A DNA stretch of 64,000 bases from Zootoca vivipara (taxonomy: Eukaryota), in assembly GCF_963506605.1 (NCBI RefSeq), contig NC_083288.1, positions 38,068,001 through 38,132,000 of the forward strand, given 5' to 3'. Position numbers and translations under genes: made by a program. Under the pieces are notes generated by a model. That model saw only the letters and a program-made list of their open reading frames with translations, did no database searches and was not told the origin of the DNA. Shown one piece after another: positions 11,121-57,800 of this stretch (position 1 is its first letter; each line of letters begins with the position of its first letter).

Positions 11121-14100
11121 CTAGCACAAAAGCAATTTCTTTACATATATACCAAGTTGTTCCTTATTAACAGCTTTAGTCAAAGCATCAGCAGGTATTT
11201 CTTTCCCTGGCATATATGAGACTTTTACAACTCCTTTCTGAATGCATTCTCTGGCACGGTGCAATTTGATTAGCAAATGTTTTGTTCTTTGCTTGCACCC
11301 TTCTGAATGGATTAGTTCTATGCAGGCTTTGTTGTCCTGATAAACTTGAACTGGACAACAAATTTTTACTCTCATATCCTCACATAGTTGCAACAACCAC
11401 TCTACATTCATGAGGGAAAAATTTAAAGCGTTGAGTTCTGCTTCACATGAACTCATGCTTATTGTTGCCTGTTTCTTACAAGACCAATCAAATAGGCACT
11501 GATTGTACAAATAACACACACCTGAGGTGCTCTTGCCATCAGTTGTATCACTACCAAAACTGGCATCGGCATAGATCTCAAGACCTCCAGATTTTTGGCT
11601 AGTAAGCTTCAACCTGTAATGCATAGTGCCTTTTAAATACCTAACTATGCGTTTCAGTGCCTTCCAGTCTTGCACTGTAGGTTGATTTACATATCTGCTG
11701 AGCAAATTTACGCTAACAGCAATGTCTGGTCTTGTGCACCTTGCTATAAAACTAAGTTTACCCAAAACACTTCTGAACAATGTAGTGTCAGGAAAAACAT
11801 TAGCATTAGTATCATGTTGGTACCCTGTGACCATGGGGGTGTCTACAGAATTGGCATCTGTCAGATTTAATTTTTCAATCACATCATTGATCTTACGTGA
11901 TTGATGCAGCAAAACATCACCTTGCTTATTTCTCTCTACTTCCAGTGAGAGATAATTGCTGACTTCCCCTAGGTCTTTCATATCAAAATGCTTTTGCAGT
12001 TTTGCAAGAGTGGTTTTGTAAATATTTGCATCCTTCCAGAAAAACAAAATATCATCCACAAAACAAATGCAGTACAATTTGTGCTGGTTAGATTCTTTAA
12101 CAAAAACACAAGAATCAGCCTTTCCTTGCTGGAAACCTAAGGAAAACAGCACTTCTGTCAGCTTAGTGTGCCAGCATCGAGCACTTTGTTTTAGACCATA
12201 CAGGGATTTTTTTAATTTACACACCATTCCCTTTTTTATCTGCACTCCGTCTGGCGGTGACATGTAAATACTCTCATTGAGAATTCCGTACAAAAACGCA
12301 GTATTTACGTCGTGATGAGATATGGTCATGCCCTCTTCTGCAGCAATTTTCATCAACAGCCTAACTGTCTCAAATTTGACTGTCGGTGAATATGTCTCAT
12401 GATAGTCCTGATCAGGAACTTGAGAAAAACCACGTGCAACTAATCTGGCTTTATATCTGACCACTTTACCAGTCTGATCAGTCTTGGTTTTGTAAATCCA
12501 CCTGCTGTCTACAAGTTTCATGCCTGGTTCTACTGGAACCAATTCCCACGTGTCATTTTGCTTTAGGGAATTCAATTCAGCTTTCATGGCATTAAGCCAA
12601 GGTTCGGCATCTTTTTCAGGTAAATTTTGAACCTCTTTGTAGTTAGTTGGTTCAAAAACTGAGTTTGGATTGCTAGTGGCAGCCATATCTGAAATAGCAG
12701 CTTTAGCAAATTCTTTAGAAAATCGTTTAGGTGCTTGTCCCTTGGTAGTTCTCTCAGATCTACGCAATACTCTGGGATCCTCTGGGTCTGGTTCCTCCTC
12801 CTTGGGAGAATGGTGACCTGTATCTGGCAAAGATTCTACCTCTAGATCAGTGTCAGACCCATCTGATTTCTTAAAAGAGGTCTTTTCATTCTGATCATCT
12901 GTATCAGTGTCAGAATCTGTGCTACCATCAGCATCAATTACAGGTTTTGCCTCTTTGTTAATTGGTTTCACCACCTCATCATCTGAAATGGGATGACATT
13001 GAAAAATGCCAACTTTGTCCCATTTTGGATTACAATCCATGCTTCTGGTCAGCCTAATTGTGTTTGTGTCTGTCATCAGCACACGATAAGAACCTTTTTC
13101 ATAACCTAGAAAAATGCCATGTTGACCAGATTTGCTCAGTTTGTCACCTTGCAGAGTGTGCACCCAAACTTCAGAACCGAAAATTTTTAAATGTTTTACA
13201 AACGGTTTCCTTTTGAACAGCATTTCGTATGGGGTGCAATCAATGGCTGATTGATACCTGCGGTTGTAAATATAGGTGAAACACGATAGAGCTTCAGCCC
13301 AGAAGGGGTTGGGTAGGCCTGAATCATGCAACAGAGTTTTAATTCCTTGTTGCAAGGTCTGGTTTACTCTTTCACATAAACCATTCTGCCATGGAGATCT
13401 GGGCGTGGCAGTCATGTGCTCTATGCTCTGTTCTGCAGTAAAGTTTTCAAACTGTTCTGAACAAAATTCTCCACCCCTGTCAGTGAAGAGACAACGTACA
13501 TGCTCATCGTGAACATTCCTGAGCCATGCACAAAATTTTTGAAACTTAGAGAAGGCTTCAGACTTCTTTTGTAACATATAGACCCAAACATATCTAGAAT
13601 AGGCATCTATCAGAACCAAAAAATAACATGAGTTTCCTCTAGAGAGCGCTAGAGGTCCAACCAAGTCTGCATGCACAATCTCATAAGGTTTCTTAACCTC
13701 CCTCCCAGATTTTGTACCTTTGGGAGCTTGCTTAATTTTGTTCTCTGCACATGAGACACATTTCATATGATAAGGACACTTTTGAACTTTCATGCCCTCA
13801 ACCATATTTTGCATTTTACCTACTGCCTGGAAATGCAAATGACCAAACAAACGATGATAATCATGAATACAATGGTTATGCAATTTCTCATTCTTATCTA
13901 CTGATATATTACAGCACGCCTTTTCAGTTTCTTTAGTTGCTCCAGCAGCTGTACCTGTAACAAAAGGCAATACATATAAACCATCAACACACTTAGCATA
14001 AAGAATGAGTTTGTTGTCTCGAAGAATTTCACACCGAGAGTTTGCAAACACCACTTTAAATCCTTGAGCGTCTAGCTGAGAAACACTCAAGAGATTATCC

Positions 14101-15125
14101 TGCAAATGAGGAGCATACATAACATTTTTAACTGTTGCATTAAGGCTCTGCAAAGAAACCGTTCCCTGAGCCAAACTTTTAATAGTCGTTCCATCCGCTT
14201 GATGAATTGCTCCTCCCTGTTTCTCAAGATGAAGAAAGAGATTTTTATCATTGGCCACGTGCCTTGTGGCTCCTGAGTCGACAACAAAAACAGAACGTGT
14301 GAGTTGATTAGAACTGCGTGAAATCAAAGCCTTTGATGCAGCTGGCCCTTGGGGTTTTCGGCCTCCTCCCCCTTTGCCTTTGAAGTTGCCCTTCTTCTTT
14401 GAAGAGTTTTTACACTGATTTTTAAAATGGCCGACCTCTCCGCAAGAAAAACAGCGGCGCATTTTAAGAGCTTTTGCAACACTTTCACTTTCCCCTGTTG
14501 AAGGCTTGTAGGCATTTCCAACAGCCTTGTCCCTGCTTTCTCTAGCAGTCTGTCTGCGATCCCACTCATTCAAGAGCACGCTAGACACATAATCTTCTGT
14601 TAGACGGTCATTGGGCAAAGACGACAATTGAGCAGCTACAGCATCATAAGATTCATCCAAACTGTTTATGATAAGCATTGCAAAAACAGCTTCTGAAATA
14701 TTTAAGTCTCGCTGGACAAGATCCTGTCTGAGACGTTTTAATTGGGCTAGATGGCTGGGCAAATCACCATCTTTCTGCAATTCCAGCCTACACAGCTTTT
14801 TAAAGAAAAGCACACTGGATCCTGCATTTTGTCTTAGATGCATATCTCGAAGTTTATTCCAAACAGCCCGTGCAGTCTGCTGGTTCTCCAAGTTGACCAA
14901 CAACTGGTCCTGGACACTCAGAATAATTGTCCCCCTGGCTCTCATGTCTGCCTCATGCCACGCTGGCCATCCATCATCATCCTCATTAGGGGGGTCATCT
15001 TCTATAATATGGTAAAGCTTTTCCCTTTGTAAAAGTGCTTTCATTTTGACCTGCCATGTAGGATAGGTCTCTGGTGTAAGGAGAGGAAAAGATAGAGACA
15101 TCTGGCCAGAATGTGCAGAAGCCAT
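11121..15125 (-). CDS. Copia Gag-Pol polyprotein (gag, CCHC knuckle, protease, integrase, RT, RNase H), 1334 aa
   Basis: CFSCGEVGHFKNQC zinc knuckle; VVDSGAT protease; HRLFGH...CVSC; integrase HADLVGP / FTDRGGEF / QNGLCER; RT YKARLVARGFSQ and FVDD; RNase H YADASF / CEAEL / YQDN / ADALTK. No stops or frameshifts. Confidence 0.97.
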   Translation of the reverse strand: MASAHSGQMSLSFPLLTPETYPTWQVKMKALLQREKLYHIIEDDPPNEDDDGWPAWHEADMRARGTIILSVQDQLLVNLENQQTARAVWNKLRDMHLRQNAGSSVLFFKKLCRLELQKDGDLPSHLAQLKRLRQDLVQRDLNISEAVFAMLIINSLDESYDAVAAQLSSLPNDRLTEDYVSSVLLNEWDRRQTARESRDKAVGNAYKPSTGESESVAKALKMRRCFSCGEVGHFKNQCKNSSKKKGNFKGKGGGGRKPQGPAASKALISRSSNQLTRSVFVVDSGATRHVANDKNLFLHLEKQGGAIHQADGTTIKSLAQGTVSLQSLNATVKNVMYAPHLQDNLLSVSQLDAQGFKVVFANSRCEILRDNKLILYAKCVDGLYVLPFVTGTAAGATKETEKACCNISVDKNEKLHNHCIHDYHRLFGHLHFQAVGKMQNMVEGMKVQKCPYHMKCVSCAENKIKQAPKGTKSGREVKKPYEIVHADLVGPLALSRGNSCYFLVLIDAYSRYVWVYMLQKKSEAFSKFQKFCAWLRNVHDEHVRCLFTDRGGEFCSEQFENFTAEQSIEHMTATPRSPWQNGLCERVNQTLQQGIKTLLHDSGLPNPFWAEALSCFTYIYNRRYQSAIDCTPYEMLFKRKPFVKHLKIFGSEVWVHTLQGDKLSKSGQHGIFLGYEKGSYRVLMTDTNTIRLTRSMDCNPKWDKVGIFQCHPISDDEVVKPINKEAKPVIDADGSTDSDTDTDDQNEKTSFKKSDGSDTDLEVESLPDTGHHSPKEEEPDPEDPRVLRRSERTTKGQAPKRFSKEFAKAAISDMAATSNPNSVFEPTNYKEVQNLPEKDAEPWLNAMKAELNSLKQNDTWELVPVEPGMKLVDSRWIYKTKTDQTGKVVRYKARLVARGFSQVPDQDYHETYSPTVKFETVRLLMKIAAEEGMTISHHDVNTAFLYGILNESIYMSPPDGVQIKKGMVCKLKKSLYGLKQSARCWHTKLTEVLFSLGFQQGKADSCVFVKESNQHKLYCICFVDDILFFWKDANIYKTTLAKLQKHFDMKDLGEVSNYLSLEVERNKQGDVLLHQSRKINDVIEKLNLTDANSVDTPMVTGYQHDTNANVFPDTTLFRSVLGKLSFIARCTRPDIAVSVNLLSRYVNQPTVQDWKALKRIVRYLKGTMHYRLKLTSQKSGGLEIYADASFGSDTTDGKSTSGVCYLYNQCLFDWSCKKQATISMSSCEAELNALNFSLMNVEWLLQLCEDMRVKICCPVQVYQDNKACIELIHSEGCKQRTKHLLIKLHRARECIQKGVVKVSYMPGKEIPADALTKAVNKEQLGIYVKKLLLC

Positions 15126-15436
15126 GCCTGTGTTTAGTTAACAGCAAGACACTTCCCTTCATGCACCCCAAATACTCTTGACTCTCTCAGCAACTTCTCT
15201 CCCCACTCAGCACAATTAACAGGCAAACTGGAAAAGCGTCTCTGCTGTCTTCCTGGCAGCCAGCAACATACCTTTTCTGTAAATCAAACAGCAGCTTGAA
15301 AAACAGCTTCAGCTCACAGCTCAACTCCGATGTGCAGCATCAGATGGAAATGGATCAGAAACATCCAATTATCCAACCATCAATAGCCATCTGCAACCAT
15401 CAGCCTGCTACCAGCAACCATCCGCCTGCTACCATA

Positions 15437-17599: not shown

Positions 17600-18955
17600 T
17601 TACACAGGGTTCTTTTCAAAATAGGAGCAATAAGCAGCCCTGATCTGGCAAGCTCTCTTGGTCAGTCCAGCCTCCGACAAGGGCACCCTTGGCCTGGCTG
17701 AAGCATTCTGGCTTTCAGCCACTGTGGGGCTTTCCAACGGCTCCAGCAACTCATCCCCTTTGATCTCGCAGATATTGTGCAGGATACAGCAAGTGGCTAT
17801 GACCACAGGAATAAGCTTCTCCCTCACATCCAGCCTCATCTGCAGGCACCTCCAGCGAGCTCTCAGGACCCCGAAAGCTCTCTCCACGCATGCTCGGCAC
17901 TTGGCAAGCCTCTCGTTGAATTTTTCCTGGGCCCCGGTTTTTGGCGCTGGGTACGGCTTCATGAGCCAGGGGCGAAGCGGATAGGCAGGATCCCCAATTA
18001 TGATAGGGGTCATCAAAACGCCTTCCAGCACCGTTGGAGTCTGTGGCCCAAAAGTGCCTTCATCCATGCTGTTGAAGAACGGAGAGTTGTGCAAGATGCG
18101 GGAGTCGTGGGACCTCTCCGGAAAGCCGACATAGATATCGGTGAACCGGGATTTGCTATCCACCAGGGCCTGCAGCACCATAGAATAGAAACCCTTGCAA
18201 TTAATGTAGGAGTCAGCAGAGAACGGGGGGCAGAGGATGGAGATGTGGATTGCATCGATTGCGCCGAGGCAATTGGGGAAACCCATCTCCTTGAAGCCCT
18301 CAATGATCTCCTGCGGGTCTCCCAGCTTAATGATTTGGGCCAGCAGCCTGCTGTTTATTTCCTCGCACACCTCTTCAAATATCGAGCAGGCTGACGAAAT
18401 CCCCACCCCGAAGAGCTCCGAGACGGTCTTGTAGCTGTCGTGGTGCGCCAGCTTCCAGATAGTCATGGCGACTCTCTTCTCCACGGGGATGTGAGACCGC
18501 ATGCCCGTGTCCCGGCGCTGCAGGGCGGGGCGCAGCTCCTCGGCGATGTACATCAGCGTGGACCGCGACATCCTGAACAAGGAAATCCAGCACTTGTCGT
18601 CCTGCTCGGAGCTGATCATCCGCTCCCACCATTCGCTGCACCTGGGAAGCATCCAGTGGGAGCGCTCAGACAAGGCCATCAGCTCGTGCTCGTAGTGCAG
18701 CGCGGGAGAAGACGAGTACACCATGGTGACCACGGAGACGATGGCGTTCCGGTGAAGCCGCAGCAGGGCTCTCTTGCGGCGGACGCTGGCCGAGAGGATG
18801 CGCCTCAGCACCGCGGCTGACCTGCGGAAGCGCCTCCTCTGCAGAATCCTCGCTATGGCGAATATCACCGTGCGCCTGTTGAGCATCCATTGCTGCACTA
18901 GCAACTGGGAGGTTTGGACGCAGGCAGCAACCAGAGCCACGCACTCCTGCTCCAT
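17600..18955 (-). CDS. PIF/Harbinger transposase-derived nuclease (HARBI1/ALP1-like, DDE_Tnp_4 family), 451 aa, single coding exon
   Basis: Family motifs FRMSR, PVEKRVA, LFGVGISS (HTH), GAID(234)AIH, SMVLQALVD, HDSRI, GD(322)PAYPL, FNERL, VE(358)RAFGVLRARWRCL, CCILHNICE. Candidate acceptors open exons at 19015 or 19129. AATAAA at 17475-17470. Confidence 0.92.
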   Translation of the reverse strand: MEQECVALVAACVQTSQLLVQQWMLNRRTVIFAIARILQRRRFRRSAAVLRRILSASVRRKRALLRLHRNAIVSVVTMVYSSSPALHYEHELMALSERSHWMLPRCSEWWERMISSEQDDKCWISLFRMSRSTLMYIAEELRPALQRRDTGMRSHIPVEKRVAMTIWKLAHHDSYKTVSELFGVGISSACSIFEEVCEEINSRLLAQIIKLGDPQEIIEGFKEMGFPNCLGAIDAIHISILCPPFSADSYINCKGFYSMVLQALVDSKSRFTDIYVGFPERSHDSRILHNSPFFNSMDEGTFGPQTPTVLEGVLMTPIIIGDPAYPLRPWLMKPYPAPKTGAQEKFNERLAKCRACVERAFGVLRARWRCLQMRLDVREKLIPVVIATCCILHNICEIKGDELLEPLESPTVAESQNASARPRVPLSEAGLTKRACQIRAAYCSYFEKNPV

Positions 18956-26623: not shown

Positions 26624-29600
26624 CATTATCATCATCTCTTGACTATGTTCAACTACCCATGGGACAGCTCCCAAGCCTCAACACACATGCATTGGTTCTC
26701 CTCCCTTTCCCTCACGCCCAGTGACGCAGTGGGATCCTTCCAGCACCTTACCATCCAGGTGGTAATTTTTTGCAGCCTGCCAGTCGCTAACTTCCATTTT
26801 CTCCCAGGATGCTCCAGCATCTGCATCTCGTTCATCCACGTCTGGTGCCGTCCCGCCACCCCCTCCATGCCCAGCCCCCGGCTCATTGATAAAGGAGAGG
26901 CCCCACTCATTCTGAAAGATGGCTCCCAGGTGCTGTCGCCGACTGCTGTCAGATGGCGGGGGGCTACTTGGGGGTGGCGCCAAGACACAGTTGGGGAGGC
27001 TATTGGTGGTGCGGACGGCTGAGGCAGGAACATGGCAGGCTTTCCCCGGTTGATCCAGGTTCTCTTTCAGCTTGCTGGCATAAGAGATCTTGGGGATGAT
27101 CCGGGCACTGCTGCTATCAACCGGGAAAGCGGGAAGTGGCCGGAAGAGCGACCATGTTTCCTTCCCAGAATCCTCGGTGGCTGTGTTGGCGGCATTAGAT
27201 GTGGCGGCAGGCTTCTCACTGGCTTTGATGGTACTGCCTCGTTCGGATTCGGGAGATGACGACGGGGAGGGTGGGTCGGAATAGCCGCGGCGCCGGTGCT
27301 GCCACCGCCCGTTGGAGATGCTCTCAGGAGCACAGTGATGGCCGTTTGTGCTAGGTCCCCATTCCTTGCGGTCTGAGGGGCTGCCTCGGTAGGTCTTGCG
27401 GTATGCTGTAGCATGGAAGGGGCGGGCATGGTAAAAGCGATGAGGGTAGCGGTGGGGATGGTGGGCAACAGGAGGGTCCCGCTCAGACAACTGGAGATTG
27501 CGGATGTTGAGGCTGTTGGAAGGGCTCAGGGGAACACTGGGTTCGTCAGCTATCTCAGAGGGAGCAGTATACCCATTGGACTCCCATGCACCTGAAGAGA
27601 AAGAAGAGAAAGGGTGAAGACCATGTCTGACTCACGTCCCTTTGTCACCCTCTCACACCAAGAATGCAAGCACCTCAGACCAGCAACCCCATTTTTTATT
27701 TGGGAGGGTGGGAAGCTTATGTTACCAAAGATTGCTTGAAACAAAATAAAAAAATTCCTTCAGTAGCACCTTAAAGACCAACTAAGTTTTTATTTTGGTA
27801 TGAGCTTTTGTGTGCATGCACACTTAAGGAATTTTTTTATTTTGTTTCGACTCAGACCAACACGGCTACCTACCTGTAACTAGAAAGATTGCTTGGTTAG
27901 TGTTTGGAGATTTGGTAAGAAAGTTGGGGGATTAAAAGGTGCTTAAATAGGACACCTAAATATTTGAACATATTTCTGGCTTTCGTTTATCTGGAATGCA
28001 GACACATTCACCTCTCTCAGTTTGGGGTCAACAGGTCACAGATGAGGCAGAAGATGCCCATGGGGTTAAAATATCCTTGAGGTTTATCTGGGGTGCGCAG
28101 GTGGCTAAAATCTTCACATCAATTAAGTGATTTCAAAACCTCTCTCCATGCTGCTAACTCAGTCAATTCCAAAACAGTGATCTTCAGTCAATAAAAGAGG
28201 GGGGGAATTCCTCTTCTGTCTTCTGATATTTATTAATTATAAACTCTAAGACAATTACAAGGAACCTTTTGCCCCCCCAGAAGCTGCTGAACCACATTTT
28301 GCATCTTGATGGCCATACTGACAGGGGCTGATGGAAGCTGTAGTTCAGCAACATTAGGAAATCATATGAAAATACCACTTCTGAGGTTGGTGTAGCCCAC
28401 TCCCCGCTTTTCTGGTTATTTAGCATTCAAAACATTCTGTCTTCAGGTTTCCAAGCTTCTTTACATTGTGATGAGCAAAGGGGGGGAACAGAACCAGAGG
28501 TGTTAATGCTGAAGAACTCAAACCTATGAGATCCCTTCTCTTAAACCCTAACCAATTTCAGGTTCCTCAAACCCTTTCCCAATAATTCTAGAATCCCTTC
28601 CCTTAAGCCACTGAGCTACCCAGAGAATTAAAGAGTCATTGTTTTCCCATCTGTAGGGCTTCATTCCTCTCCTAAATATACCCCAGGAGTGTGAAAGGGA
28701 TATGAAGAACATGCTACTTTTTCCAAATGGGTATCTAGTAAAGCAGCACGGTGGCAGATAATCACTTCTTCTCCACAACTTTTTAACAGGGAAGAGAAAA
28801 CGGGGAGTATAGAGGATGGGCATTCAGGGCTCTAGGTTCTCAGGATGAATGTGCCTCACCCAGCACTGAGGTGCAACCACCTCTGGAACAGAAAAACATG
28901 CAGAAAAAGCATGATAGAAAGGAAAAGGGCAAAGCCCAACCTCAGTTCAGTACAACACACCTTCTCTGGAGACCTGGCTTGGCCTGTAGCCCAGCTCTGC
29001 TCCACCCCCTGCGTGACAGAAAGAATGTTTTATTTTCAACATTTAGATGCATTAAGGATAGCTAGAACTTAGATGCATGTTACAAAAGGCAGTTAATCAA
29101 ACCAGAGCCACTGAATTAACCAAATAGGACCCGCCCTAGTAAGGAAAAGGAAACTGAAACTCTGGAAAGGGAGTGTGATTCAGTAAATTGAGATTTACCA
29201 GGTAAGGGGCAGGTTTGCATGATTCTGTGGAGATACAGCAGCTTATGGTTTACGGTAGGATTTTCCAGCATGGGTTGTCCGATTCTTTTTGGGGGGGAGC
29301 AGGAAACTTAGCTTGGGGGGTGGGGGTTCACAGCTCCACATATGAGGTAGACACTATAGGGCTGAGGTAAAGGAAATTGAAATAAGGATGCGCTCTAGTG
29401 GTGAAAAAAGCTTGCTTGTCCCAAGAGTTCAGTTTAGTTTTGGACTAAATGAACAACAGATGCATACAAGGAGTTTGGGGTGTGTGAATGGATTGATAAG
29501 GGCAAGGATCAGCTGAGTTCATTGGGAACTAAAGGAAACATTTCAAAATGCTAAGCACCAACACCAAAATTCTGGGTGATCAAGAAGCTGGGTTTTTAGT

Positions 29601-40999: not shown

Positions 41000-41700
41000 T
41001 GCTGGACGGGCCTCTTCCCAACCCTGGCTCGTCTCCGTTCGGGCCTTTTCCCCTCCGCCCCCCTCCGTCCCGGGAGGCCTGCGACCCCCGGCCCTTCCGC
41101 CGCCCCCAGCCACTCACCTCCCGAGGGAGAGCGGGTGGGCTCAGCACAGGCGCCTCCCCTTCAGCCCCGCCCGGACTCAGGGCACAACGGCCGGCCAAGA
41201 CGCCTAAGCCCGGGAGCAAGGAGGCGCAGGGACAGCGACTGCGCATGCACTTCAGAGCCCTCGCTCGCACTCTGGTCGCTTCGCCTGGCAGTTAGCCTCT
41301 ACATCCGGGTACCCGCCCGCATTTAGCAAGACACAGAGACCTGGACGGCGCTTCCCTCCCAGGGGCGGAGGAGCAGAAGTGCGCCTGCGCCAGAAGGCGA
41401 GCCTGTTGAGGCTGAGAGGAAACAAATGCTCCAGGAAGCAAGGAGGGAGGACACTGCTCGTGCGCATGCGCCTACAAGCAACCGTGAGCCGCACTGAGCA
41501 TTTGGTTTACGCAGAAAGGGAAGACGCGCCATGCTGTCGTTTGCGCACGCTACTGGGTGGGGAAAAATCCGTTAGCTAGCGCGCGCTGCAACTGGAGCAT
41601 GCGCCGTTCTTCCAGCTGGGGCAGCTAAAGCGCCTTATATCGGCTTGTTTGTGCCGATAGCGTCGCAGGGGTTGAAGGCAGGGACGGCGATCGCCGGTTC
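41000..41700 (-). promoter_or_regulatory. KCTD13 CpG-island promoter and non-coding exon 1
   Basis: CpG island with several NRF1 motifs (TGCGCATGC at ~41241, GCGCATGCGC at ~41462). Minus-strand donor GAG|GTGAGT at 41118. The coding exon acceptor is at 39325. Confidence 0.8.
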
Positions 41701-43101: not shown

Positions 43102-43269
43102 AGGTTTTATAAGTGCGTTGTGCTTGCTTGCTTGCTTGCTTTCTCTCTCTCTCTTAGGACTTCAATTGCCTCCTTTTTCAAAGTCAAGTAATACCTCCCT
43201 ATCACTGCTGCTGCTCTTTTCTGATTTTTTAAAAAACAAAATTTTATTGTTTTTAAACAAATACAATTA

Positions 43270-43425
43270 CAGTGGTACCTCGGTTTATGAACACAATTGG
43301 TTCCGGAAGTCTGTTCATAAACTGAAGCGTTCATAAACTGAAGCGAACTTTCCCATTGAAAGTAATGGAAAGTGAATTAATCCGTTCCAGATGGGCCGCG
43401 GCATTCGTAAACCGAGGTTCCACTG
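43270..43425. mobile_element. Tc1/mariner (Tigger-like) MITE
   Basis: TIRs CAGTGGTACCTCGGTTTA / TAAACCGAGGTTCCACTG with TA TSD. Confidence 0.8.
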
Positions 43426-43789
43426 TACCCAGCAGTAGCTTATCCAGCAGTACAGCTAATGGTGTGTGTTTTATCCAATGTCTCCAGACATACACTTACA
43501 CATTCAACATTCAAACATTAATGTAACCTCTCCACTGAGACTATTGAGCAGTTGGTATAAGGAGATCTTGATTTTGGTCATTAACATGATCTTTTCTGAT
43601 CTTTTGTCACTCATCATTTAAAACACTTTTGTTCTCATCAACTTTGGGTCACGTTTTTTGATCTGAAATGAACTCAGGAGGAAGCACCTTTGGGGTCAAA
43701 GCCATAATTGTGTTAAGAGCATTCTGCATGAAACTGAGTGGCCAAATAGATTTATTGAGAAACTAAGGAAATTGCTCAAGGCTCTTGTA

Positions 43790-44263
43790 CAGCGTTTCTC
43801 AACCGCTGTTCTGCGGCACACTAGTGTGCCGCGAGACGCTGGCTGGTGTGCCGCGACGTGCGGCGACGAGAAGGGCGATTTGCATTGTCACGTGCCTGGC
43901 GGCCGCCAATAAACAACACTGACCCGCCAGAAAGGAAGCCGCCGGGTCACGCTGCGGGGCGAGCGCAGCTCTCAACAGCCACGGGAGGGTGGTTTTAGAC
44001 AAACTTAAAGAAGCTGGCTGGATGAGCTCAGCCTGAAACTTGCTGAGCAAAGGATTGTTCTGGCAGAGAAATCAGCGGCTTGTGAAGCCTTATTACAAGA
44101 GATTGCAACCAACACAGCAATTGGCAAGTGTTTCTTACAGTCATAATTATATAGTCAATATAGGGCGGCACAGAGTTAATTTTTTAAACTTTTTTAATGG
44201 TGGTGTGCCTCGTGATTTTTTTCATGGAACAAGTGTGCCTTGGCCCAAAAAAGGTTGAGACTG
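43790..44263 (+). mobile_element. Non-autonomous hAT element carrying a captured dynein heavy-chain exon fragment
   Basis: TIR CAGCGTTTCTCAACC / GGTTGAGACTG and exact 8-bp TSD CTCTTGTA. Internal 43985-44129 translates to a dynein stalk-like peptide. Confidence 0.85.
43985..44123 (+). pseudogene. Captured, frameshifted fragment of an axonemal dynein heavy chain (DNAH10-like) exon
   Basis: EGG/LDKLKEA/LDELSLKLAEQRIVLAEKSAACEALLQEIATNTAI followed by a donor-like G|GCAAGT. It matches the recalled DNAH10 stalk coiled-coil (LDELNQKLAEQKIVLAEKSAACEALLEEIA). Confidence 0.75.
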
Positions 44264-44939
44264 CTCTTGTAAACCCAGATGCCCATAGGGGAAGAGTGCC
44301 AGGGAAGCAAGTCCTGCAGTGAGCCTCTGCAGGAGGAAGGCTTTCTCCTTTCACTTGGTGTGAGGATCAATTAAGGCACTCCTGGCAAAGACAAAGCAGA
44401 AATGCAGAGTCACAGTTGCTTATTGCATCTCTGATAGTGCTCTGCATTTGCCTCCCAGTGAGATAGGATGTTGCAAACAGTACCTCACGCAAAAACATGA
44501 TGGGCTGGGCTGAGCATCCCACCCCCCTAGAAGTAAACTGTTAGGGCTGGGTCTGTCCCCTTAATTCAGCTTCGGGAAGATAAACCCCCATCCAACAGAT
44601 GTTTGAGAATCACTGGCTTTAAAAAAAAGTTGAAAGTCATCACACAAGTTTTAAGACCAGAACTTCTGACCACTTACAGTGGAACAAGAATCTTAATCTG
44701 TGTCAACCACCATGCTGTGGAATTCCCACCTGACTGGTGTGTCTAGCTAGCACCTTTCCTATACAGCTTTCAGCAGATGCTAACGACAAACTTCTCCCCT
44801 GGCCCTTGGCACCTTAGATGTGTTTTAGGGACCCCACCCTTGCCAGATTTGAAGTTATATTATGAAGTGTCCTGCCTCTGCTGGTTGGAGGAATAGATCT
44901 TGTTAAAAAACACAGATTTATTAGATCTGGAGGGTCACG

Positions 44940-48413: not shown

Positions 48414-51400
48414 TTAAATACACACCTTCAGAAAAGAAGCTACTTGTTTGGCAGAGATGCCGTCGACTTTCCCAAGGTCCTCCACCTGAGAAAAGGAGGA
48501 AGGAGAAATGTGTAGGTAACACAAAGCTGCAAAATCATGGAGATACTTAATTATTAAATTTGTGTACCACCCCTCATCCATAGATCTCAGGTCCACAACA
48601 ACAACAAAAATATTCTGAGGGAATAGCAATACTGCAGTAGTAGAGCATTTTGCTTTGCTCAGCACCTGGCATTTCTAGTCTCTCTCAACAATTGGCCACA
48701 GTAGCCAAATGAAACCTCCACATTCAAAGGTAATATTTATTTTTTATTTCATAAAATTTATACACCACTTGATTTTTTAAAAAAATTACAACCTCAAAGT
48801 GGTTTACAAAAAGATAAAACAAGAAAAAGGAGAAATATTCACAACCCTACTGTAAAGCATACAAAAGTTAAAATACTAAAACAGATTAACATTACCTCAA
48901 CTTCCTAAGTATCTGGGTAGGCTTGCCTGAACAAGAATGTTTTAGCAAGCGCCAAAGAATACAGTGAAGGCACTTCTTGATCTCAAAAGGCAGGGAGTTC
49001 CAAAGTGCAGATAATAATAATAATAATAATTTATTATTTATACCCCGCCCATCTGGCTGGGTTTCCCCAGCCACTCTGGGCGGCTTCCAACAGAAAAATA
49101 AAACACAGTAATCTTTTAAACATTAAAAGCCTCCCTGAACAGGGCTGCCTTCAGATGCCTTCTAAAAGTCTGGTAGTTGTTTTCCTCTTTGACATCTGTT
49201 GGGAGGGCGTTCCACAGGGCAGGCGCCACCACCGAGAAGGCCCTCTGCCTAGTTCCCTGCAACTTGGCTTCTCACAACGAGGGAACCGCCAGAAGGCCCT
49301 CGGTGCTGGACCTCAGTGTCCTGGCAGAATGATGGGAGGTGGAGACACTCCTTCAGGTATACTGGACATTAAACAATCGGGTTCTTACAAATGCAGAACG
49401 GGTATTATGTGGCAGCTTGCCAATTCTGCCAATTGAACCGGTTGAGTGGAAATATGTGGGGCAAGACGATCTTGTAGGTAAACTGGTCCCAAGTTGTAAA
49501 GGGCCTTTATATACTAATAGTAAAGGTAAAGGGTCCCCTGACCATTAGGTCCAGTTGCGGATGACTCTGGGGATGTGGCGCTCATCTTGCTTTACTGGCT
49601 GAGGTGGCCAGCATGACAAAGCTGCTTCTGGCGAACCAGAGCAGCGCACAGAAACACTGTTTACCTTCTCTTTATCTACTTGCACTTTGACGTGCTTTCG
49701 GACTGCTAGGTTGGCAGGAGCTGGGACCGAGCAACAGGAGCTCACCCTGTCGTAGGGATTCGAACCGCTGACCTTCTGATCAGCAAGCTCTAGGCTCTGT
49801 GGTTTAACCCACAGCCCGGTAGGAAATTGGCAACCAGTGCAGATCTCCAAGCACAGGTTTTATCCACTGACAAGGCATCACACTGCAGCATTCTGCATTC
49901 TGCAGAGGGCCTTCTCGATAGTGGCGCCCGCCCTGTAGAACGCCCTCCCATCAGATGTCAAGGAAATAAACAACTACCTGACTTTTACAGAACATATGAA
50001 GGCAGCCCTGTTTAGGGAAGTTTTTAATGTTTTATGTCTTATCATGTTTTTAATATTCCATTGTGAACCGCCCAGAGTGGCTGGGGAAACCCAGCCAGAT
50101 GGGCGGGGTACAAATAATAATAAATTGTTGTTGTTGTTGTTAGCCTCCCAATTCTAACTGCCGGGGTGGGGGGTATTGCTTCCGTGCCATGCTGGTGGGC
50201 TTCCCAGAAGCTTCTGGCTTGCTACAAAAACGTTGGACTAGATGGACCTTTATTCTGACCCAGCTCTTACGAGAATAGGGAGCTACTCCCTTCCCCTCCC
50301 AGATTTAAGAATGAGCAGGAGTCCTCCAAGACTTAATGCTCTGAACTTGAGCAAGGTCTGAACGTGTTAAAGCCTTGCATGGCCTACCTCCTACCTGAAG
50401 ATGAATTTCCTCTGCACAGTAGCTGCACCTGCACACACCTCAAACGATGGAAGAGCAGCTCTGTCCTCAGAGCCCACTTACCTTTTCAAAGGACCCATGC
50501 TCTCCTCTCCAGGCCATAATGCGATGAGCCTTCTTCTTGCCAATCTGGTGCAGGGCCATGAGATCCTTCACAGAGCCTGTGTTCAGGACAGCCAGGATGT
50601 TCTCCTTGGTGCGGGCCATCAGATCAGGCCGAACCACCATCTCCCACTTAGAGGGAACCTTGTTTTCAGAGCCAGGGGCCGAATCCTGGATATAGCATGC
50701 ATCATAAAAAGAAGTGGTGTGGTGTCGCACCCGTCTGTTTCCTGACTGGCCCTCATCTCATATTCTTTCACTGAATCACAAACATACCCTGGCTTCTCAG
50801 ATCTTATAAATCTCCTGCCTTTTACTTATCAGGGGTTCGTCAATGAGATACCAGGCATGCAGAATAAAGTTCTCCAGAAGATAAGACAGACAACTGTCAC
50901 TGCTGAGTTTACCTTCTCTTGTTTCACAGGCCTGTGTCAGGGTTTTTGGAATCTGCTGAGAGCCATGTCCCTGAAGCAGGCCCACTGGAAACTGCCGGAG
51001 CCACCTTATTAATAGTATTTATAACTCTGCCTTACAGCTGAACGCACTCTCAGAGAGGCTTACAAAAAACACTTCTCTCAGGCTGATGGTCTAGACCAGA
51101 GGTCGGCAACCTAAGGCCCATGGGCCGGTTCTGGCCCATCGGCCTCCCGGAACCAGCCCATGGCCAGTTCTGTGGATTGGCGTGGGGATTCCAAGGTGGA
51201 ACCTCCTCCCTCCTTGTGCAGCAAATTGCCAGCCAATCGCCTGCTAAGGTTTGAGGCCCTGGCCAATGGGCGAGCGGTGGCTGCGCATGGTTGAGAGGAG
51301 GAAGGGGGCTGGGCTTAGCTGGCCAAGCACATTTCCAGCAGCCCCTCGTCGGAGCAAGCTGTTTGCCGCCGCCACTGCCTTTGCCATCACTCTGCCAAGT

Positions 51401-51828
51401 GCAGCTCCTGTGCCTGCCCTTGCGAGTGGTAGAGGCTATCGGTGCTGGCGGAGGAGGAACGAGCAGCTCGAAAGCAGCCCTTTCGGGCTGCTCTTTCCTC
51501 CTCTGTTGCTGCTGCCACCAGCCTCTGCCTCTCGGCAGCACCCTAGGTAGGCAGGGGGCGGGGGGGGAGAGAAGCCCCCTCTGCCGTGTGCGCATGCGTG
51601 CACACACACAAACGCACTCTGGCCCACCGGGAGGTTTGTGGTGTGGTGAACTGGCCCACCCCCCAAAGAAGCTTGCCGACCCCTGGTCTAGACCATCCTC
51701 CAGGATCCTCTGTAACGTGTCCTGCTGCATGCTTGGCAACATGGAAAGTCTGAAAAGCACCAATACAGCCCATGCCCCAAGTTCAGTCTCCAGTGAGGCA
51801 GCTGGACAGGGTGAGCTCTGGCCTAACA

Positions 51829-51880
<52 letters not shown>

Positions 51881-54800
51881 CTGCTCTGAGGCAGTGAGTC
51901 CAGAACTTTGATCTGGCTTCCTCAAGACACTTGCAAAGCTACTTTCTTTCTGTTCCTGGAATGAACCATTTCAGGCTGCTTCCCACCAACCTTACCCATA
52001 AGAATTTAAATTTGCTTAAAACAGGGAAAAGGGGGGGGGAAGCATGTGGTCAGCAGGAACAGCCCTGATTTTTCTGATCTGGCTAATGCTACCTGTTCCA
52101 CTCCCAGATTTGATCCAGAAACACGGTGCGTGGGTGAGGGCGGATGTGAATTCTTCTGGGTAAGGCTTGATATTTGCCCCACAGCTAAGAATAAGGCTGT
52201 CTGAACATGAACCAACAACAGGCAATAGGTAAGGGAATCTGTTCTTTGTTCTAGGGCAGAAGATCTACAGGAGGAAGCCTGCTCTGGCAGAATCCATATA
52301 TAACTTTATTAAACCATGTTTGTAAACTGCCTCAAAAACCTAAGGGGTATATACACCTGTTAAGCAACTCTGCTTCCCACCATCACCAGCCCCAAGTTCA
52401 ACAAAGCCCCCACCCCACCCCCTTACGCACCTTCTTCTTTCGACCTCCCTTCTTTTGCTTTACAATGATGATGCTATCTTCGTTCGCAGAGTTCTCCGGG
52501 TGCTGCACTGGAGAGGTAAAGAAGGAGAGCTGTGATCTCATAGGAGGGAGGAGCATGAGAAGGGAGTCCTGCTTTCAGACCCAGCACCCTTTTACCTTGC
52601 TTGAAGGGCAATACCACTGGTCCTTGGTGTTTGAAAGGCACCCATGGCCCATGTCCATGCTTTTTGTCCTGCAGAACCTTGGTTTCCATTTCCAGCTGCT
52701 GCTTCTTAAGCCTCTGTAGGGAGAGGAAGAACAGAATGAGCACAAATTCAGATGGAGGGAACGGGGTATGCGTTCGGTGGCCTCCAGGAATGCGTGGGGC
52801 TGCCATCAGGTTCCCAGCCCAAAAAGAATCTTATTGTATAAGTTGCCAGGGGCATAATGAAGCTGGTTCTCAGTGCAAGATGGACACAGTTCAATTTATA
52901 TTAGAATCTCCTCCTACAGGACGTACTTAGTGCTACATCTCTTTCTTCCTTCAAAGCCGGCCTTTACATTGGAGCCATTGGCTTAACCAGAGTTGCCCTG
53001 GCAGGGCCTCCTGAGTTTAAAACAACAGCAGCAGCAACAAATAGCCCTCCTAGAAAAAAGCTAAGAAGCAAAATGTGTAGGTAACATTCTAAAAAGCTTC
53101 TGTGACTTGAACCAGCTTGGCTGTTCTCGCCCATCATTGTTTGTAGCCAATGAGTGAAGTTGAAGCTGTGATTGATAAGTGAGTTGTTTGGACACCAGGC
53201 AAAAGGAATCTCTGGAGTCCTGAAGAGCTGCTGTTCCCTCACTTTCCCTTTAATTGCACTTTTCCTGCCCCTTTAACTGCTCTATTTACCGCCTGCCACT
53301 CACTTCAGAAGCTTTTTTTTTTATAAAAATAAAAAAGTGTGTTGCTGTAAGGGAAGAAACATATTAACCACACATAGAAATTTAAAAATTTGATCAACAA
53401 ATGAAACACCGCAGACCTCACAATAAACAAGGCATTGCGTTTGTTTACGGGAGTTAGCCCATTGCAGTCTTTGACAGATCACGATGGGACATAGAGAAAG
53501 AGCAAACCCTTCACCTCCAGCTCACGCCGAGTCTCATCCAGCAGCCTCCGCAATTCCAGCCGCTCCCTGCGTGGGGTGTTGAGGAGGGGCAACGCACAAC
53601 TCTTTGCCCCTGCCTGCTGTGTTTCCAAGGCCTCCAAGTGCAGCAGCTTTTCAGCCAAGGCCGGCTCAAGATTCTCCATTGGCAGGAGGGAACTGGTGGG
53701 GAAAGAGACCAGAAAGTAGGGCCTACCTTTTCTAACAAGCCAGAGAGAGCTGCTCAATGCTTTAAGGGGGGGGAGTGACCATCCTCATGAAGTGGCAGGA
53801 AAGAATTTGACCGCACCACAGAAGCACTGCTTGCCTCTTCACCAAAACCTATAAAATGTTTGGTGTCTCACCTGAATGGCTTCTCTTCAACCAAGCTGGG
53901 CTGTTCCTCCTCTGGACAAGGTCTCTTGGCTTCAGGGCCTGCATCACTAGAAGCTGGGCATGGTCTTTTCGATGCTGCTGTGTGGGGAGGATGTTTTTAA
54001 TTTATTTGATGTGTTTATTGGACCTTGGAGCCTGCTCCACCTGGACTGCCCTCCTTCACCACCACTGGGCCTCCTACCACCAACTGGGCTCCAGAAAGGA
54101 TCCTGTTTTGTTTGGATATTCTTCGCTGTAATTTTCCTACAAAGTTACTAGTAAAATGCCTTGGAATAATTTGTATTCCCAATGGTGGGATATCAACAAA
54201 GAACAAATCGTGAAAATTATCCTGGCCTTATCAGAAACATTTCGAGTCACCTTACAAATCACCAGCTTGCAAACTACGTATCAGAATAACTTAATTGATA
54301 TTAAAATATTTTTTTTAAAAAAATACCCTAGGGGGGGAAAAGCCACAATCACAAAATATAACTAAAAACACAACGAAGTTTTTTAGTTCTTAGTTTTTAG
54401 TTCTTAGTTTAGTTTTTAGTCCTATCTGACGAAGTGTGCATGCACACGAAAGCTCATACCAAAATAAAAACTTAGTTGGTCTTTAAGGTGCTACTGAAGG
54501 AATTTTTTTATTTAAAAACACAACGTAAGTGTAAACATATCCACCCTATGGGCAACCAAGGGCACCAAGGGCAAAAATGCTTTTACTTGATACCTAAAAC
54601 ATGGACCTAAACCAGGCATCCCCAAACTTCGGCCCTCCAGATGTTTCAGACTACAATTCCCATCTTCCCCGACCACTGGTCCTGTTAGCTAGGGATCATG
54701 GGAGTTGTAGGCCAAAACATCTGGAGGGCCACAGTTTGGGGGTGCCTGACCTAAACCCTTGACACCACTCACATAATCTCAGTAGGCACAGGAATCCAAA

Positions 54801-57800
54801 GCAGACCCTCCTCCCCAGACGACTGCAAGGCACAGACTGGTTCTGACAGGAGTCAGCTGGTCATTGATGAAAAGGACAGACCATGAATGGTTCTAGTGTA
54901 TATGTATCTGAACCATGATAAAGAAATATGGGGCAGTGAATCTGTATACTACACCCCACTCTGTTCTGGGGTAGCCCAAGAATCCTGCCCTTCCTTTCTC
55001 AAAAAACAAACAAACAAAACAAAACCCCTTGTTTTGCCCCCCTTCTGCTGAATTTTGTTGTTTTCAGGCCAGCTCCCTTCCTCACCGACATCCAGCAGAG
55101 TTTCTTGCGTGAAGGGTTTGTTCACCACTTGCTTGGATTTGGCAGCAAAGTTGAGGCTTGTGAGCGTGTCATAGTAGTACTTCCTCTCAGGGGCGATATT
55201 TGCAATGATCAGGCTGTGAGCACTTCCACCCAAAGAATCCTTTAAGGAAAGAGAAATATGCTCAGTAAAATAAAATGCAGCTCTTCCCAAATCCACAGCC
55301 CCACCAATGAACCCAGGCACCCCAACTACCTGCAGCAGGCGAGTGAGTTTGCTGTCTCTGTAGGGTACACGAGGCAGCCCCTTGTTGAGGGCATCGACCA
55401 CCTTGCTAAGCACAAAGAGTGACGTGTTGATGGCCCCGCTCTCCTTCAGGCGCACCCCTCTGTTGCCTGTCCGCCGGTTGTCCTCCGAGCCGGCTAAGTC
55501 GATAAGGCAAAGCTTGGCAGCCCGCTGGGCATATGGTGGCCAGCCCTGGGTCTGGCTCACGTACACCAGCAGGACAGTGTGACTGCGGCTCGAGCGATGA
55601 TTCAGCTGTGTGGATGCCACTGTACGGTTGCTGCTGGCAGGCAAGAAATGTTTCTCAAAGTCTGAGAAGTTGGTTATTTCTCTCTCCGTCAGACCAGGCA
55701 CCAGAATGTGGTGGTTTTGATCCTCCCGGATTGGCAAGTCACGGAGGGAGGGCTCTAGGAGGTCCAAGACCTGGGGAACAAGCAGACTAGTGTTTTTTTT
55801 TATTAATAAACATTTTTATTAGATTTTCCAATTTAAATATCTAATCCATTTTCAAATTATACAAATTATACAAATATCAATTAAACAATTAATCCAAATC
55901 TTCTGCCAAATTATACAAATTTAAATTTGACTTCCATGCTTCAGACTCAGAAAGCCTAGTCCTCTTATAGTCACTGCTTTCTATCCAAGAGTCTATTAAA
56001 ATCCTTCTATCTTCTTTCAAGCCCCCGAGTTTTTCGAGCAAGCAGGCTCCCACGGGGGCTTTCCACCCAGTGCCCCCAGCCTCTCCTTCCTTCCGAAGTC
56101 GAAGCTGGTGGTGGGCATCTGCGGATGAGACTGCATCTTCCTGTACCCCGGAAAGACTTCGGGAGGCTGCATACTCCCCTTTACAGCCTCATAAATTACC
56201 CCGTGGGAACCGGAGAGATGGTATTTTCAGCCATCTTCTACGGCGATCCAAGCGGAAGTCCCAAGCAGACTAGTGTTGGTCCAGGTGACACCTCAAAGCC
56301 TACCTCACTTACTGGTAAATCCCATGGTTTCTCAAAAGCACATGGAGAACAACATAAATTTACTTGAACAGATTGTGTGGTTTAATCAAGTAGGGTACAA
56401 ATCCAGCCTTCTGCAAACACCGAATAAGTTCTCTAGTTTACCTCTTGCCCTCCTCTGTAAGAGACCTGCTTTCTCCTGGGCACTTCTGGCTCATCACCTT
56501 TAGTCTCCATGCCATGCTCTGTTCACTCCTCCAAATTTCCCCCTCCTCCCCTGTCCTTTCTACACTTGTATTCAATCATTCTCCTCCTTCCCAGGCTCCA
56601 TTCTGTCTGCTTCCCCCAAGCATCAATAACCTAAGGCTCCCCAGAGCTTGTAGGACTCCAACTCCCCTCAGCATGCCCAATGGTCAGGGAAGATGGAAGC
56701 TACAGTCTGGCAATATCTGGAGGGCCAAAGGTTCCCCACCCCTGCCTTACTCCATCTGTCTTCCCTGCCCTTCTACTGCTCTTTCCTTTCTTCTCTCCCC
56801 CTTTGCAGCCATTTCGGCTTGCTTTTGACCCAGCTGCCCAGTCTCTTTTCCCATTCCCATCAGCCACGCCTCAGTTCTTCACCAATCTTCAAGCAGGCCC
56901 AGAGCACACATATGACAGCGTCAGCAGGCACTGAGACGGGACCCTCTCTAGATCAGACTAGTAGCAGATGACTCACGGATCTTCTAAATACCAACCGGGA
57001 ACAGAATGGAGTTTTGGTCACATTAACGAACTTCCCAGGGGTCAAAACACTGCCAGTCTTCAATACAACAAAAAAGGAGGCCAGAGTGTGTGCAAATCTG
57101 TTGCCAGTATCACTTGCTGTAGTCTAATTAGGTCATGCCCTCCCCAATACATCTGGCTCCTCAGCCCCATCTTGTTCTAAGCTGCTTTCTTCCCCAAAGA
57201 TCCCACCATTCTTATATACTAGGCTCAGTTTTCCCCTCTTATGCATTTTGTCCAGCACCCGTTACCTTCTCTTGGTAGATTTCCAGGTATGACATAGAGA
57301 CTGAGTACTTTCGCTCATCCCCCGAAGCATCCCTTGTCATCTGCAAGAGATTCTGAACTGCTCTTGGAATCACCCCCGGCTGCTCCGGACTCCCCAACAT
57401 GGTGTGCGTCTTTCCTGCCATTTTAGGGAGGGGGAACAAAAGAGATGTGAAGAGAGAGGGGAAACCATCACGTCCACCCTTGGCGCAATTCCAAGCCCCA
57501 GCCCACCCGCTGACCCCCAGCAACTCTAGGTTGGGTTCATCCCTTTGTGCACTGTTTTATAGTCACCTGCTCCGGTAGGCCCATATGCCAAGATGCTGGC
57601 ATTCTGCCCTTCCAGCAGATGGTGCAAGATAGGCTGAACTGACCCCATGTAGACATCATACTGCGTGGCCGTTGCACTGTAATAAGCGTCAAATCTGGTG
57701 GGAATAGAGAAGTGGGATTGAGGCCTGCTGGCTTCTCTGAAAGTTCAGCAATTTCTACAGCAGAGATAGGTAACAGGGGGCTTTGCAGAAGGAGTGGCAG

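Follow-up and report, generated by a model that had tools for sequence, protein, structure and literature searches.

A hAT element with captured BRI3BP and DNAH10 pieces, amplified in the genome of Zootoca vivipara, and a motif-dependent hotspot of G loss in its copies

The window is a stretch of 64,000 nucleotides of Zootoca vivipara, taken from GCF_963506605.1, the single assembly on which the analysis is based (contig NC_083288.1, positions 38,068,001 to 38,132,000). At positions 43790-44263 it contains a 474-bp element between perfect 8-bp target site duplications (TSDs), CTCTTGTA, which are identical at 43782-43789 and 44264-44271 and had been recognised from the sequence alone. The left arm, with its subterminal repeats, spans 43790-43899 on the plus strand; its terminal inverted repeat (TIR) lies at 43790-43804, and its first 64 bp are common to an empty 197-bp sister MITE that has 167 matches in the genome. 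The right arm (44149-44263, plus strand) is 92% identical to the right arm of the empty MITE. Its TIR, at 44253-44263, is short by 4 nt, so that the earlier description of hAT TIRs is correct as to the type of both ends and incomplete as to the right one. With these 4 nt gone, the window copy is likely immobile. Contigs span its right junction in all three DNA runs.

The window copy likely lies between genes. It lies upstream of an expressed exon (41115-41247), at a distance of about 2.5 kb, and the end of a kinesin gene is 6 kb away. That gene, which we take to be KIF22-like, is represented by kinesin motor and HhH exons at 50470-55815 on the minus strand. The minus strand of the window also carries a copia-type LTR retrotransposon with an open frame of 1338 aa at 11124-15137 (Pfam RVT_2, rve and gag), a 451-aa DDE_Tnp_4 (Harbinger-like) transposase frame at 17603-18955, and a NUFIP2-like exon at 26681-27631. 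A 160-bp MITE with 24-bp inverted repeats, presumably Tc1/mariner-like, is found at 43268-43427 and has many related reads in RNA.

Between the two arms are pieces of two host genes, whose names (DNAH10 and BRI3BP) are based on PDB and Pfam matches. A 5′-truncated, frame-broken DNAH10 exon occupies 43981-44123 on the plus strand, as located by genome alignment and PDB match, and is followed at 44124-44148 (plus strand) by 25 nt of DNAH10 intron, GC donor included, that are identical to the start of the host intron. Both the 35 uninterrupted codons (44018-44122) and the donor G|GCAAGT at 44123/44124 noted in the sequence-only reading are present. The EGG-LDKLKEA part that it placed before them is separated from them by a +1 insertion and a net 7-nt deletion, lesions of the amplified form that bring a stop into the DNAH10 frame. 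Among 177,635 PDB sequences, the 35-codon peptide matched three (E 1e-10 to 1e-9), with DNAH10 as the sole match, in agreement with the identity first proposed; two of the three are named DNAH10, and the third is a 4583-aa chain under another label. A Pfam search with a 36-aa peptide gave no match.

The parent is a 162-nt DNAH10 exon at G000:C17:3508770-3508931, on the minus strand, one of 14 dynein-region stretches examined; a dynein locus on C16 was rejected as the source of the exon. A near-consensus copy aligns to the parent with 93% identity over 178 nt, reaching 25 nt into the intron, and the window copy with 92% over 175 nt, the intron piece included. Because identity runs on into the host intron, the alignments confirm the earlier proposal that DNAH10 was captured at the DNA level and not as an RNA copy. 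The host intron begins with a GC donor and ends in AG about 1.75 kb on, after which the next exon carries the frame forward. The window copy has neither the splice acceptor nor approximately the first 20 nt of the exon. Within 20 kb around the parent there is no match to the element arms, and the parent is thus not flanked by the element.

Upstream of the exon, positions 43900-43982 (plus strand) hold a captured piece of the BRI3BP promoter/5′ region. Its parent is G000:C17:1866918-1867008, which is assigned to BRI3BP by the Pfam BRI3BP exons found 7-11 kb downstream on the same strand. Longer relatives of the element hold the first exon with its donor, and this exon together with element consensus 111-202 matches contig C17 from 1866918 onward. 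The family consensus is 86% identical to the BRI3BP 5′ region over 92 nt, and the window copy 80% over 84 nt. The E-box, CCAAT and GGAAG words listed in the sequence-only reading are all there, and the stretch that it called promoter-like is indeed promoter DNA; what it missed is that this DNA was captured from host BRI3BP. The BRI3BP parent site is on the same contig as the DNAH10 exon, 1.64 Mb from it, and the 31.6 kb around it contain no element-arm match. With a BRI3BP piece and a DNAH10 piece in one element, the window element is a two-gene chimera. The founder of the DNAH10-bearing forms had three bases changed in the parental BRI3BP site at G000:C17:1866918-1866940, which presumably resembles a CTCF motif.

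The element belongs to a large family. All 40 scored candidates (of 2561 in its own genome) are full-length copies with 94-100% identity. The chimeric DNAH10 junction has 586 exact matches in the genome and its control none, and the parent-type junction occurs at two places only, the gene itself and the locus L222. An intact unit measures 485 bp, and the 15-bp TIRs start with CAGYG in the aligned copies, which fits the YARNG beginning described for short hAT TIRs (PMC3014272). Of 93 copies sampled in order along the genome, both ends were present in 81, and the TSD was perfect in 73 and had one mismatch in three; the TSDs of these 76 copies are all distinct, with TA at places 4-5 in 74 of them. 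We take such a central TA to be the target-site preference of the Buster/Charlie hAT group, with which the family agrees. The junction count and the distinct TSDs bear out the amplified family that had been suggested. The window element is one copy of this amplified, non-autonomous, non-coding hAT with two host-gene pieces. No autonomous hAT partner with the same ends was present in 30 loci read of 74 PF05699 matches, and the transposase would have been supplied by another, autonomous hAT. A 138-bp MITE with similar TIRs at L340:2272-2409 lies near a 667-aa hAT frame, which is not the partner on present evidence.

The relatives of the window copy differ mainly in what they carry. The element at L222:1167-2284 (G000:C18) is 1.1 kb long, is bounded by hAT ends, and contains a BRI3BP piece, a 319-nt DNAH10 piece with the acceptor and about 140 nt of intron, and an open junction; it additionally holds approximately 400 bp of DNA of no assigned identity. 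It is likely an early form of the family. Subfamily B retains the whole DNAH10 exon with its acceptor, while in subfamily D (374 bp) one unit is duplicated and, of the exon, only the two ends remain; units of the B/D type number 1490 in the genome. In five D copies (L182, L261, L289, L296 and L301) there are three 82-bp units, which suggests unequal exchange between tandem units. A form with a third cargo, typified by L158:1519-1800 and found in at least 39 other places (40 scored copies), has another GC-rich first exon, with an ATG and a donor, in place of most of the DNAH10 exon. The parent of this second cargo in L158 was not among the 40 scored of 56 candidates. Further cargo forms with GC-rich inserts are seen at L279, L288, L280 and L287 (approximately 720, 1075 and 834 bp), one of which runs on into a C2H2 zinc-finger coding piece. 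A D-like copy in one contig of run X19 places the family under a second species label too. Judging from these mosaics, the captures may have occurred in serial steps by template switching or gap repair, BRI3BP first and DNAH10 next, with internal deletions last; serial template switching would fit the FoSTeST model as presented in PMC8277862.

The element is a new and far more amplified variant of animal Pack-TIRs. Those described, such as Pack-hAT-N8_XT with a piece of the CAPSL 5′ UTR (Tan et al., 2021; PMC8277862), similarly have non-autonomous hAT ends around host DNA, element-free parent loci, distinct TSDs and GC-rich 5′ cargo. That survey of 100 genomes, however, reports four multicopy Pack-TIRs, those described having three and five copies, and none for its one lizard, whereas in the present family the exon is found in at least 586 copies, the cargo comes from two genes, and there are several further cargo subfamilies. 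Plant Pack-MULEs, as characterised in the same source, likewise exist in many copies and have captured pieces of promoters and exons serially, from several genes (PMC8277862); the present family differs in being a hAT, in a vertebrate, with many more copies for each cargo. Composite non-autonomous hobo/hAT elements of Anolis (Novick et al., PMC3014272) show that lizard hATs incorporate DNA from elsewhere and give rise to new families by recombination, although their filler, as far as described in that source, is mostly other transposons and not host exons and promoters. None of the papers listed names this hAT family, and in one of the searches DNAH10 has zero occurrences among the 12 listed of 64 matches, with subscription journals and repeat databases lying outside the search.

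Copies differ from the family sequence by only 0.5% at non-CpG positions and 5% at CpG, yet at a small number of positions about half of the copies vary. The variable positions with founder G's lie in the hypermutated zone at 43911-43926 (plus strand), where the founder had G at 43912, 43913, 43916, 43918, 43921 and 43926; in the window copy the first four are gone, all replaced by A. The host BRI3BP parent has G at the corresponding consensus positions 123, 124, 127 and 129. A sister family without consensus 95-110 has the G-type 9-mer in 50 of 51 matches (the pattern having been left free there) and is similar in age, with CpG decay of 5.1% in 11 copies. As both the parent and the sister family have G, this is the ancestral base, and the A's seen in the majority consensus and the window copy arose later. 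The opposite polarity, with the A-rich consensus as ancestral, is reversed by the same comparison, and 83 exact A-rich matches once taken for intact sites are fully mutated units.

Losses were counted in 53 of the 68 fully aligned subfamily-A copies, namely those with consensus 105-113 intact. G is lost in 51 of 53 copies at position 123, in 50 at 124, in 38 at 127, in 46 at 129, in 17 at 132 and in 14 at 137, and the loss falls with distance to 6 at G140 and 3 at G141, against a background of 57 changes in 7193 non-CpG G's (0.8%). Consensus 117-121 is changed in none of the 53, and the non-G bases between the hot G's in 0-9%. At both CpGs in the hot zone, the G side is changed far more often than the C side (57 vs 10 and 20 vs 1). 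At 123 and 124 the spectrum of changes is that of background G's, and at 127, 129, 132 and 137 G to A predominates; by a reading of sequence contexts, no one deaminase preference accounts for every hot site. G170 (about window 43958) is also hot, changed in 22 of 78 copies and nearly always to A, with no dependence on the motif at 106-116 described below.

There are 65 haplotypes in 79 copies, 113 of the 127 non-CpG variants outside the zone are singletons, and the sharing of hot alleles is uncorrelated with the sharing of outside variants (rho −0.002 over 2415 pairs). Given this star-like genealogy, with only about three background changes per copy, we infer that the hot G's mutated independently in nearly every copy, after insertion. 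The allele at 123 is associated with that at 124 (p 0.004), which simple repeated single events do not explain, and 123C was inherited from the founder of the second unit of subfamily D. Tests of under-dispersion and of correlation with age were negative.

Loss of the G's depends on an 11-bp motif just upstream, at consensus 106-116 (window 43895-43905, plus strand), which straddles the join of arm and BRI3BP piece and is intact in the window copy. The parent promoter is without the first five bases of the motif, which is therefore a product of the join. Relatives of the BRI3BP type keep the parental G-run in 11 of 12 read, some of these having been found by their likeness to the G-run and one being unmatched. 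Of 108 unselected units, 23 have a change at 105-113, and 9 of these keep three or four of the four G's; of the 85 with this stretch intact, none does. All nine are changed at 107, 111 or 112. Genome-wide, 57 units keep GG, or 52 after removal of four sister-family units and one that is unrelated, and 49 of the 52 are changed at 106-116 by hand count, with changes spread over the motif. A scripted count found a damaged motif in 25 of 27 GG-keeping units vs 38 of 116 unselected ones (p 8e-9). For second units of subfamily D that keep both G127 and G129, the script gave 22 of 30 damaged vs 2 of 33, and the hand count 50 of 70. Changes in the E-box at 98-104 (0 of 12) or at 138-145 give no protection. 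The protective CpG at 111/112 has decayed in 17 of 111 units, and four neighbouring CpGs in 18, 12, 14 and 16 of 111. The loss of G's, its dependence on the motif, its confinement to one strand and its grading with distance are direct observations.

The motif is spared, the loss begins sharply at 6 nt from it, one strand is affected and the effect falls with distance; together these features point to mutation directed in cis. Probably, a putative germ-line factor bound to the motif directs the mutation of G's 7-21 bases downstream, copy by copy. The bound factor would determine where a short nick, gap or stalled bubble forms, starting about 6 nt 3′ of the motif; exposed C's of the bottom strand could be deaminated there, or the patch refilled by an error-prone polymerase that miscopies template G's. 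The cycle would recur for as long as the motif stays intact, the mutated bases being outside the recognised sequence. Polymerase nu is reported to have a G-to-A bias and to be expressed in testis. As a candidate for the G-to-A errors it was looked for by a family search, which can miss short exons and gave only theta and gamma. Raised substitution beside tightly bound transcription factors is known from the Okazaki-junction model, and bubble or gap mutagenesis from AID/APOBEC; such processes are likewise polar, one-stranded, adjacent to bound protein and fading with distance. Known germ-line effects beside bound factors are few-fold, whereas the present hotspot is approximately 120-fold in raw frequency and G-specific. 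Loss of a poly(A) signal, a CCAAT box or a forkhead site as the cause was rejected, since 117-121 and C125 are spared, and a drive by transposase-mediated excision was rejected because the TIRs are uneroded.

The main rival to a bound factor is DNA structure without protein. There is a 12-bp palindrome that overlaps the motif, and a hairpin is predicted in which 104-111 pair with 116-126 (104-107 with 123-126 and 108-111 with 116-119), so that an imperfect hairpin at 104-126 could be extruded and its downstream arm damaged or mis-repaired. The founder changes G125C and G126A improve this pairing, the protective changes lie within the palindrome, and the palindrome of the control family is shorter. 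Mutation is nevertheless seen on one arm only, and pair partners do not behave alike: position 111 is changed in 8 of 27 protected units vs 9 of 116, and 116 in 4 of 27 vs 10 of 116. Moreover, the motif-dependent loss of G127 and G129 persists in units derived from a founder in which G123 was already gone, and changes at 98-104 protect in 0 of 12. An origin in the hairpin alone is accordingly judged unlikely.

A different proposal, compatible with any of the other readings, came with the sequence-only reading: that the element acts as a mobile cassette of promoter, exon and donor, from which chimeric transcripts or small RNAs directed at DNAH10 could arise. Genuine promoter DNA and a genuine donor are carried, subfamily B holds the whole exon and its acceptor, and Pack-TIRs are described as often yielding chimeric RNAs (PMC8277862). 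The RNA data comprised three raw runs (6% of each) and one contig set, partly assumed to be RNA and with tissues unspecified. Family-derived reads are present in them, the depth over the element being at the level of the family, but in the four RNA runs the flanks of the window copy have no reads or near-zero depth, and no joint from its donor is among the 15 of 139 joints listed. The only GC..AG joint was rejected as splicing, being a DNA deletion variant. The GC donor is weak, and an in-frame stop is present in six of six acceptor-bearing copies translated. With a broken frame in addition, a working cassette is so far unsupported for the window copy, and such a role for the family is rather improbable; the exon cargo is likely a passenger.

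Hotspot drive by PRDM9, in which alleles that weaken binding are fixed at each locus by biased gene conversion, has a precedent in gorilla Alus (bioRxiv 10.1101/241356). The genome has a PRDM9-like gene at G000:C6:21732892-21758400 (L166-L169; 21.73-21.76 Mb), with KRAB, SSXRD, PR/SET and a repetitive array of 11-12 fingers in order; none of the papers listed in a literature search deals with this gene by its title. Star-like independent changes would be expected under such drive, and gaps at 120-135 are found in 8 of 83 copies, compared with 0-7 for other 16-bp windows. Drive would, however, fix first the changes at CpG 111/112, a site with a high mutation rate, that turn the hotspot off completely, and these, at 17 of 111, are not enriched. 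The required motif decays at the background rate only, which argues against PRDM9 self-erosion, and the unenriched loss of the protective CpG already refutes this reading for the most part. Changes from A/T to G/C near the site are no more frequent than elsewhere (8/2491 vs 35/14404, p 0.52), a test weakened by the GC bias reported as small in some non-mammals (PMC11703093). When the finger array was compared with the site by the zinc-finger code, 126 of 300 finger shuffles scored as well, which is not specific. Motif loss linked to PRDM9, as described for gorilla Alus (10.1101/241356), corn snake (10.1101/2023.07.11.548536) and salmonids (PMC11703093), is alike in being a lineage-specific, motif-linked excess of change in many repeat copies. 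In the gorilla (about 10%) and salmon (3%) cases as reported, however, it is the recognised motif itself that is lost (10.1101/241356; PMC11703093), whereas here the motif is spared and its neighbours are lost in about 95% of copies. PRDM9 drive is therefore quite improbable as the cause. No W-sized contig was found among C15 and C18-C22.

Selection among donors, by which elements that lost G's escaped a repressor, transposed more and passed the changes on, could draw on the inherited 123C of the D second unit and on the three neighbouring changes fixed in the founder, but is very improbable, as shared hot alleles are unlinked to shared outside variants, alleles differ inside each structurally defined subfamily, protection arises through several different changes in several subfamilies, and such selection gives no reason for a damaged upstream motif to accompany kept G's.

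Returning to the bound factor, a search by title or abstract start gave, among the papers listed, no close report of a motif-adjacent G hotspot in repeat copies, subscription journals being outside that search. We lean slightly towards the wider view that a vertebrate germ line has a form of one-strand hypermutation that is set by an 11-bp motif, is several-hundred-fold in strength and leaves the motif unconsumed, and of which this family offers approximately two thousand transposon replicates with built-in knock-out controls.

Multicopy gene-capturing TIR elements have been thought rare and tiny in vertebrates, and the present family shows plant-like serial capture with hundreds of copies per cargo. 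Its copies amount to a natural mutagenesis screen, which reveals a hotspot that depends on a motif, is precise to the base and greatly exceeds CpG decay in strength. The four A's of the consensus being derived, a majority consensus can misstate the ancestor of a repeat, which affects repeat dating. If the hotspot is mutational, it would be a testable cis cause of cryptic variation in mutation rate, for which the motif and its null alleles are already mapped.
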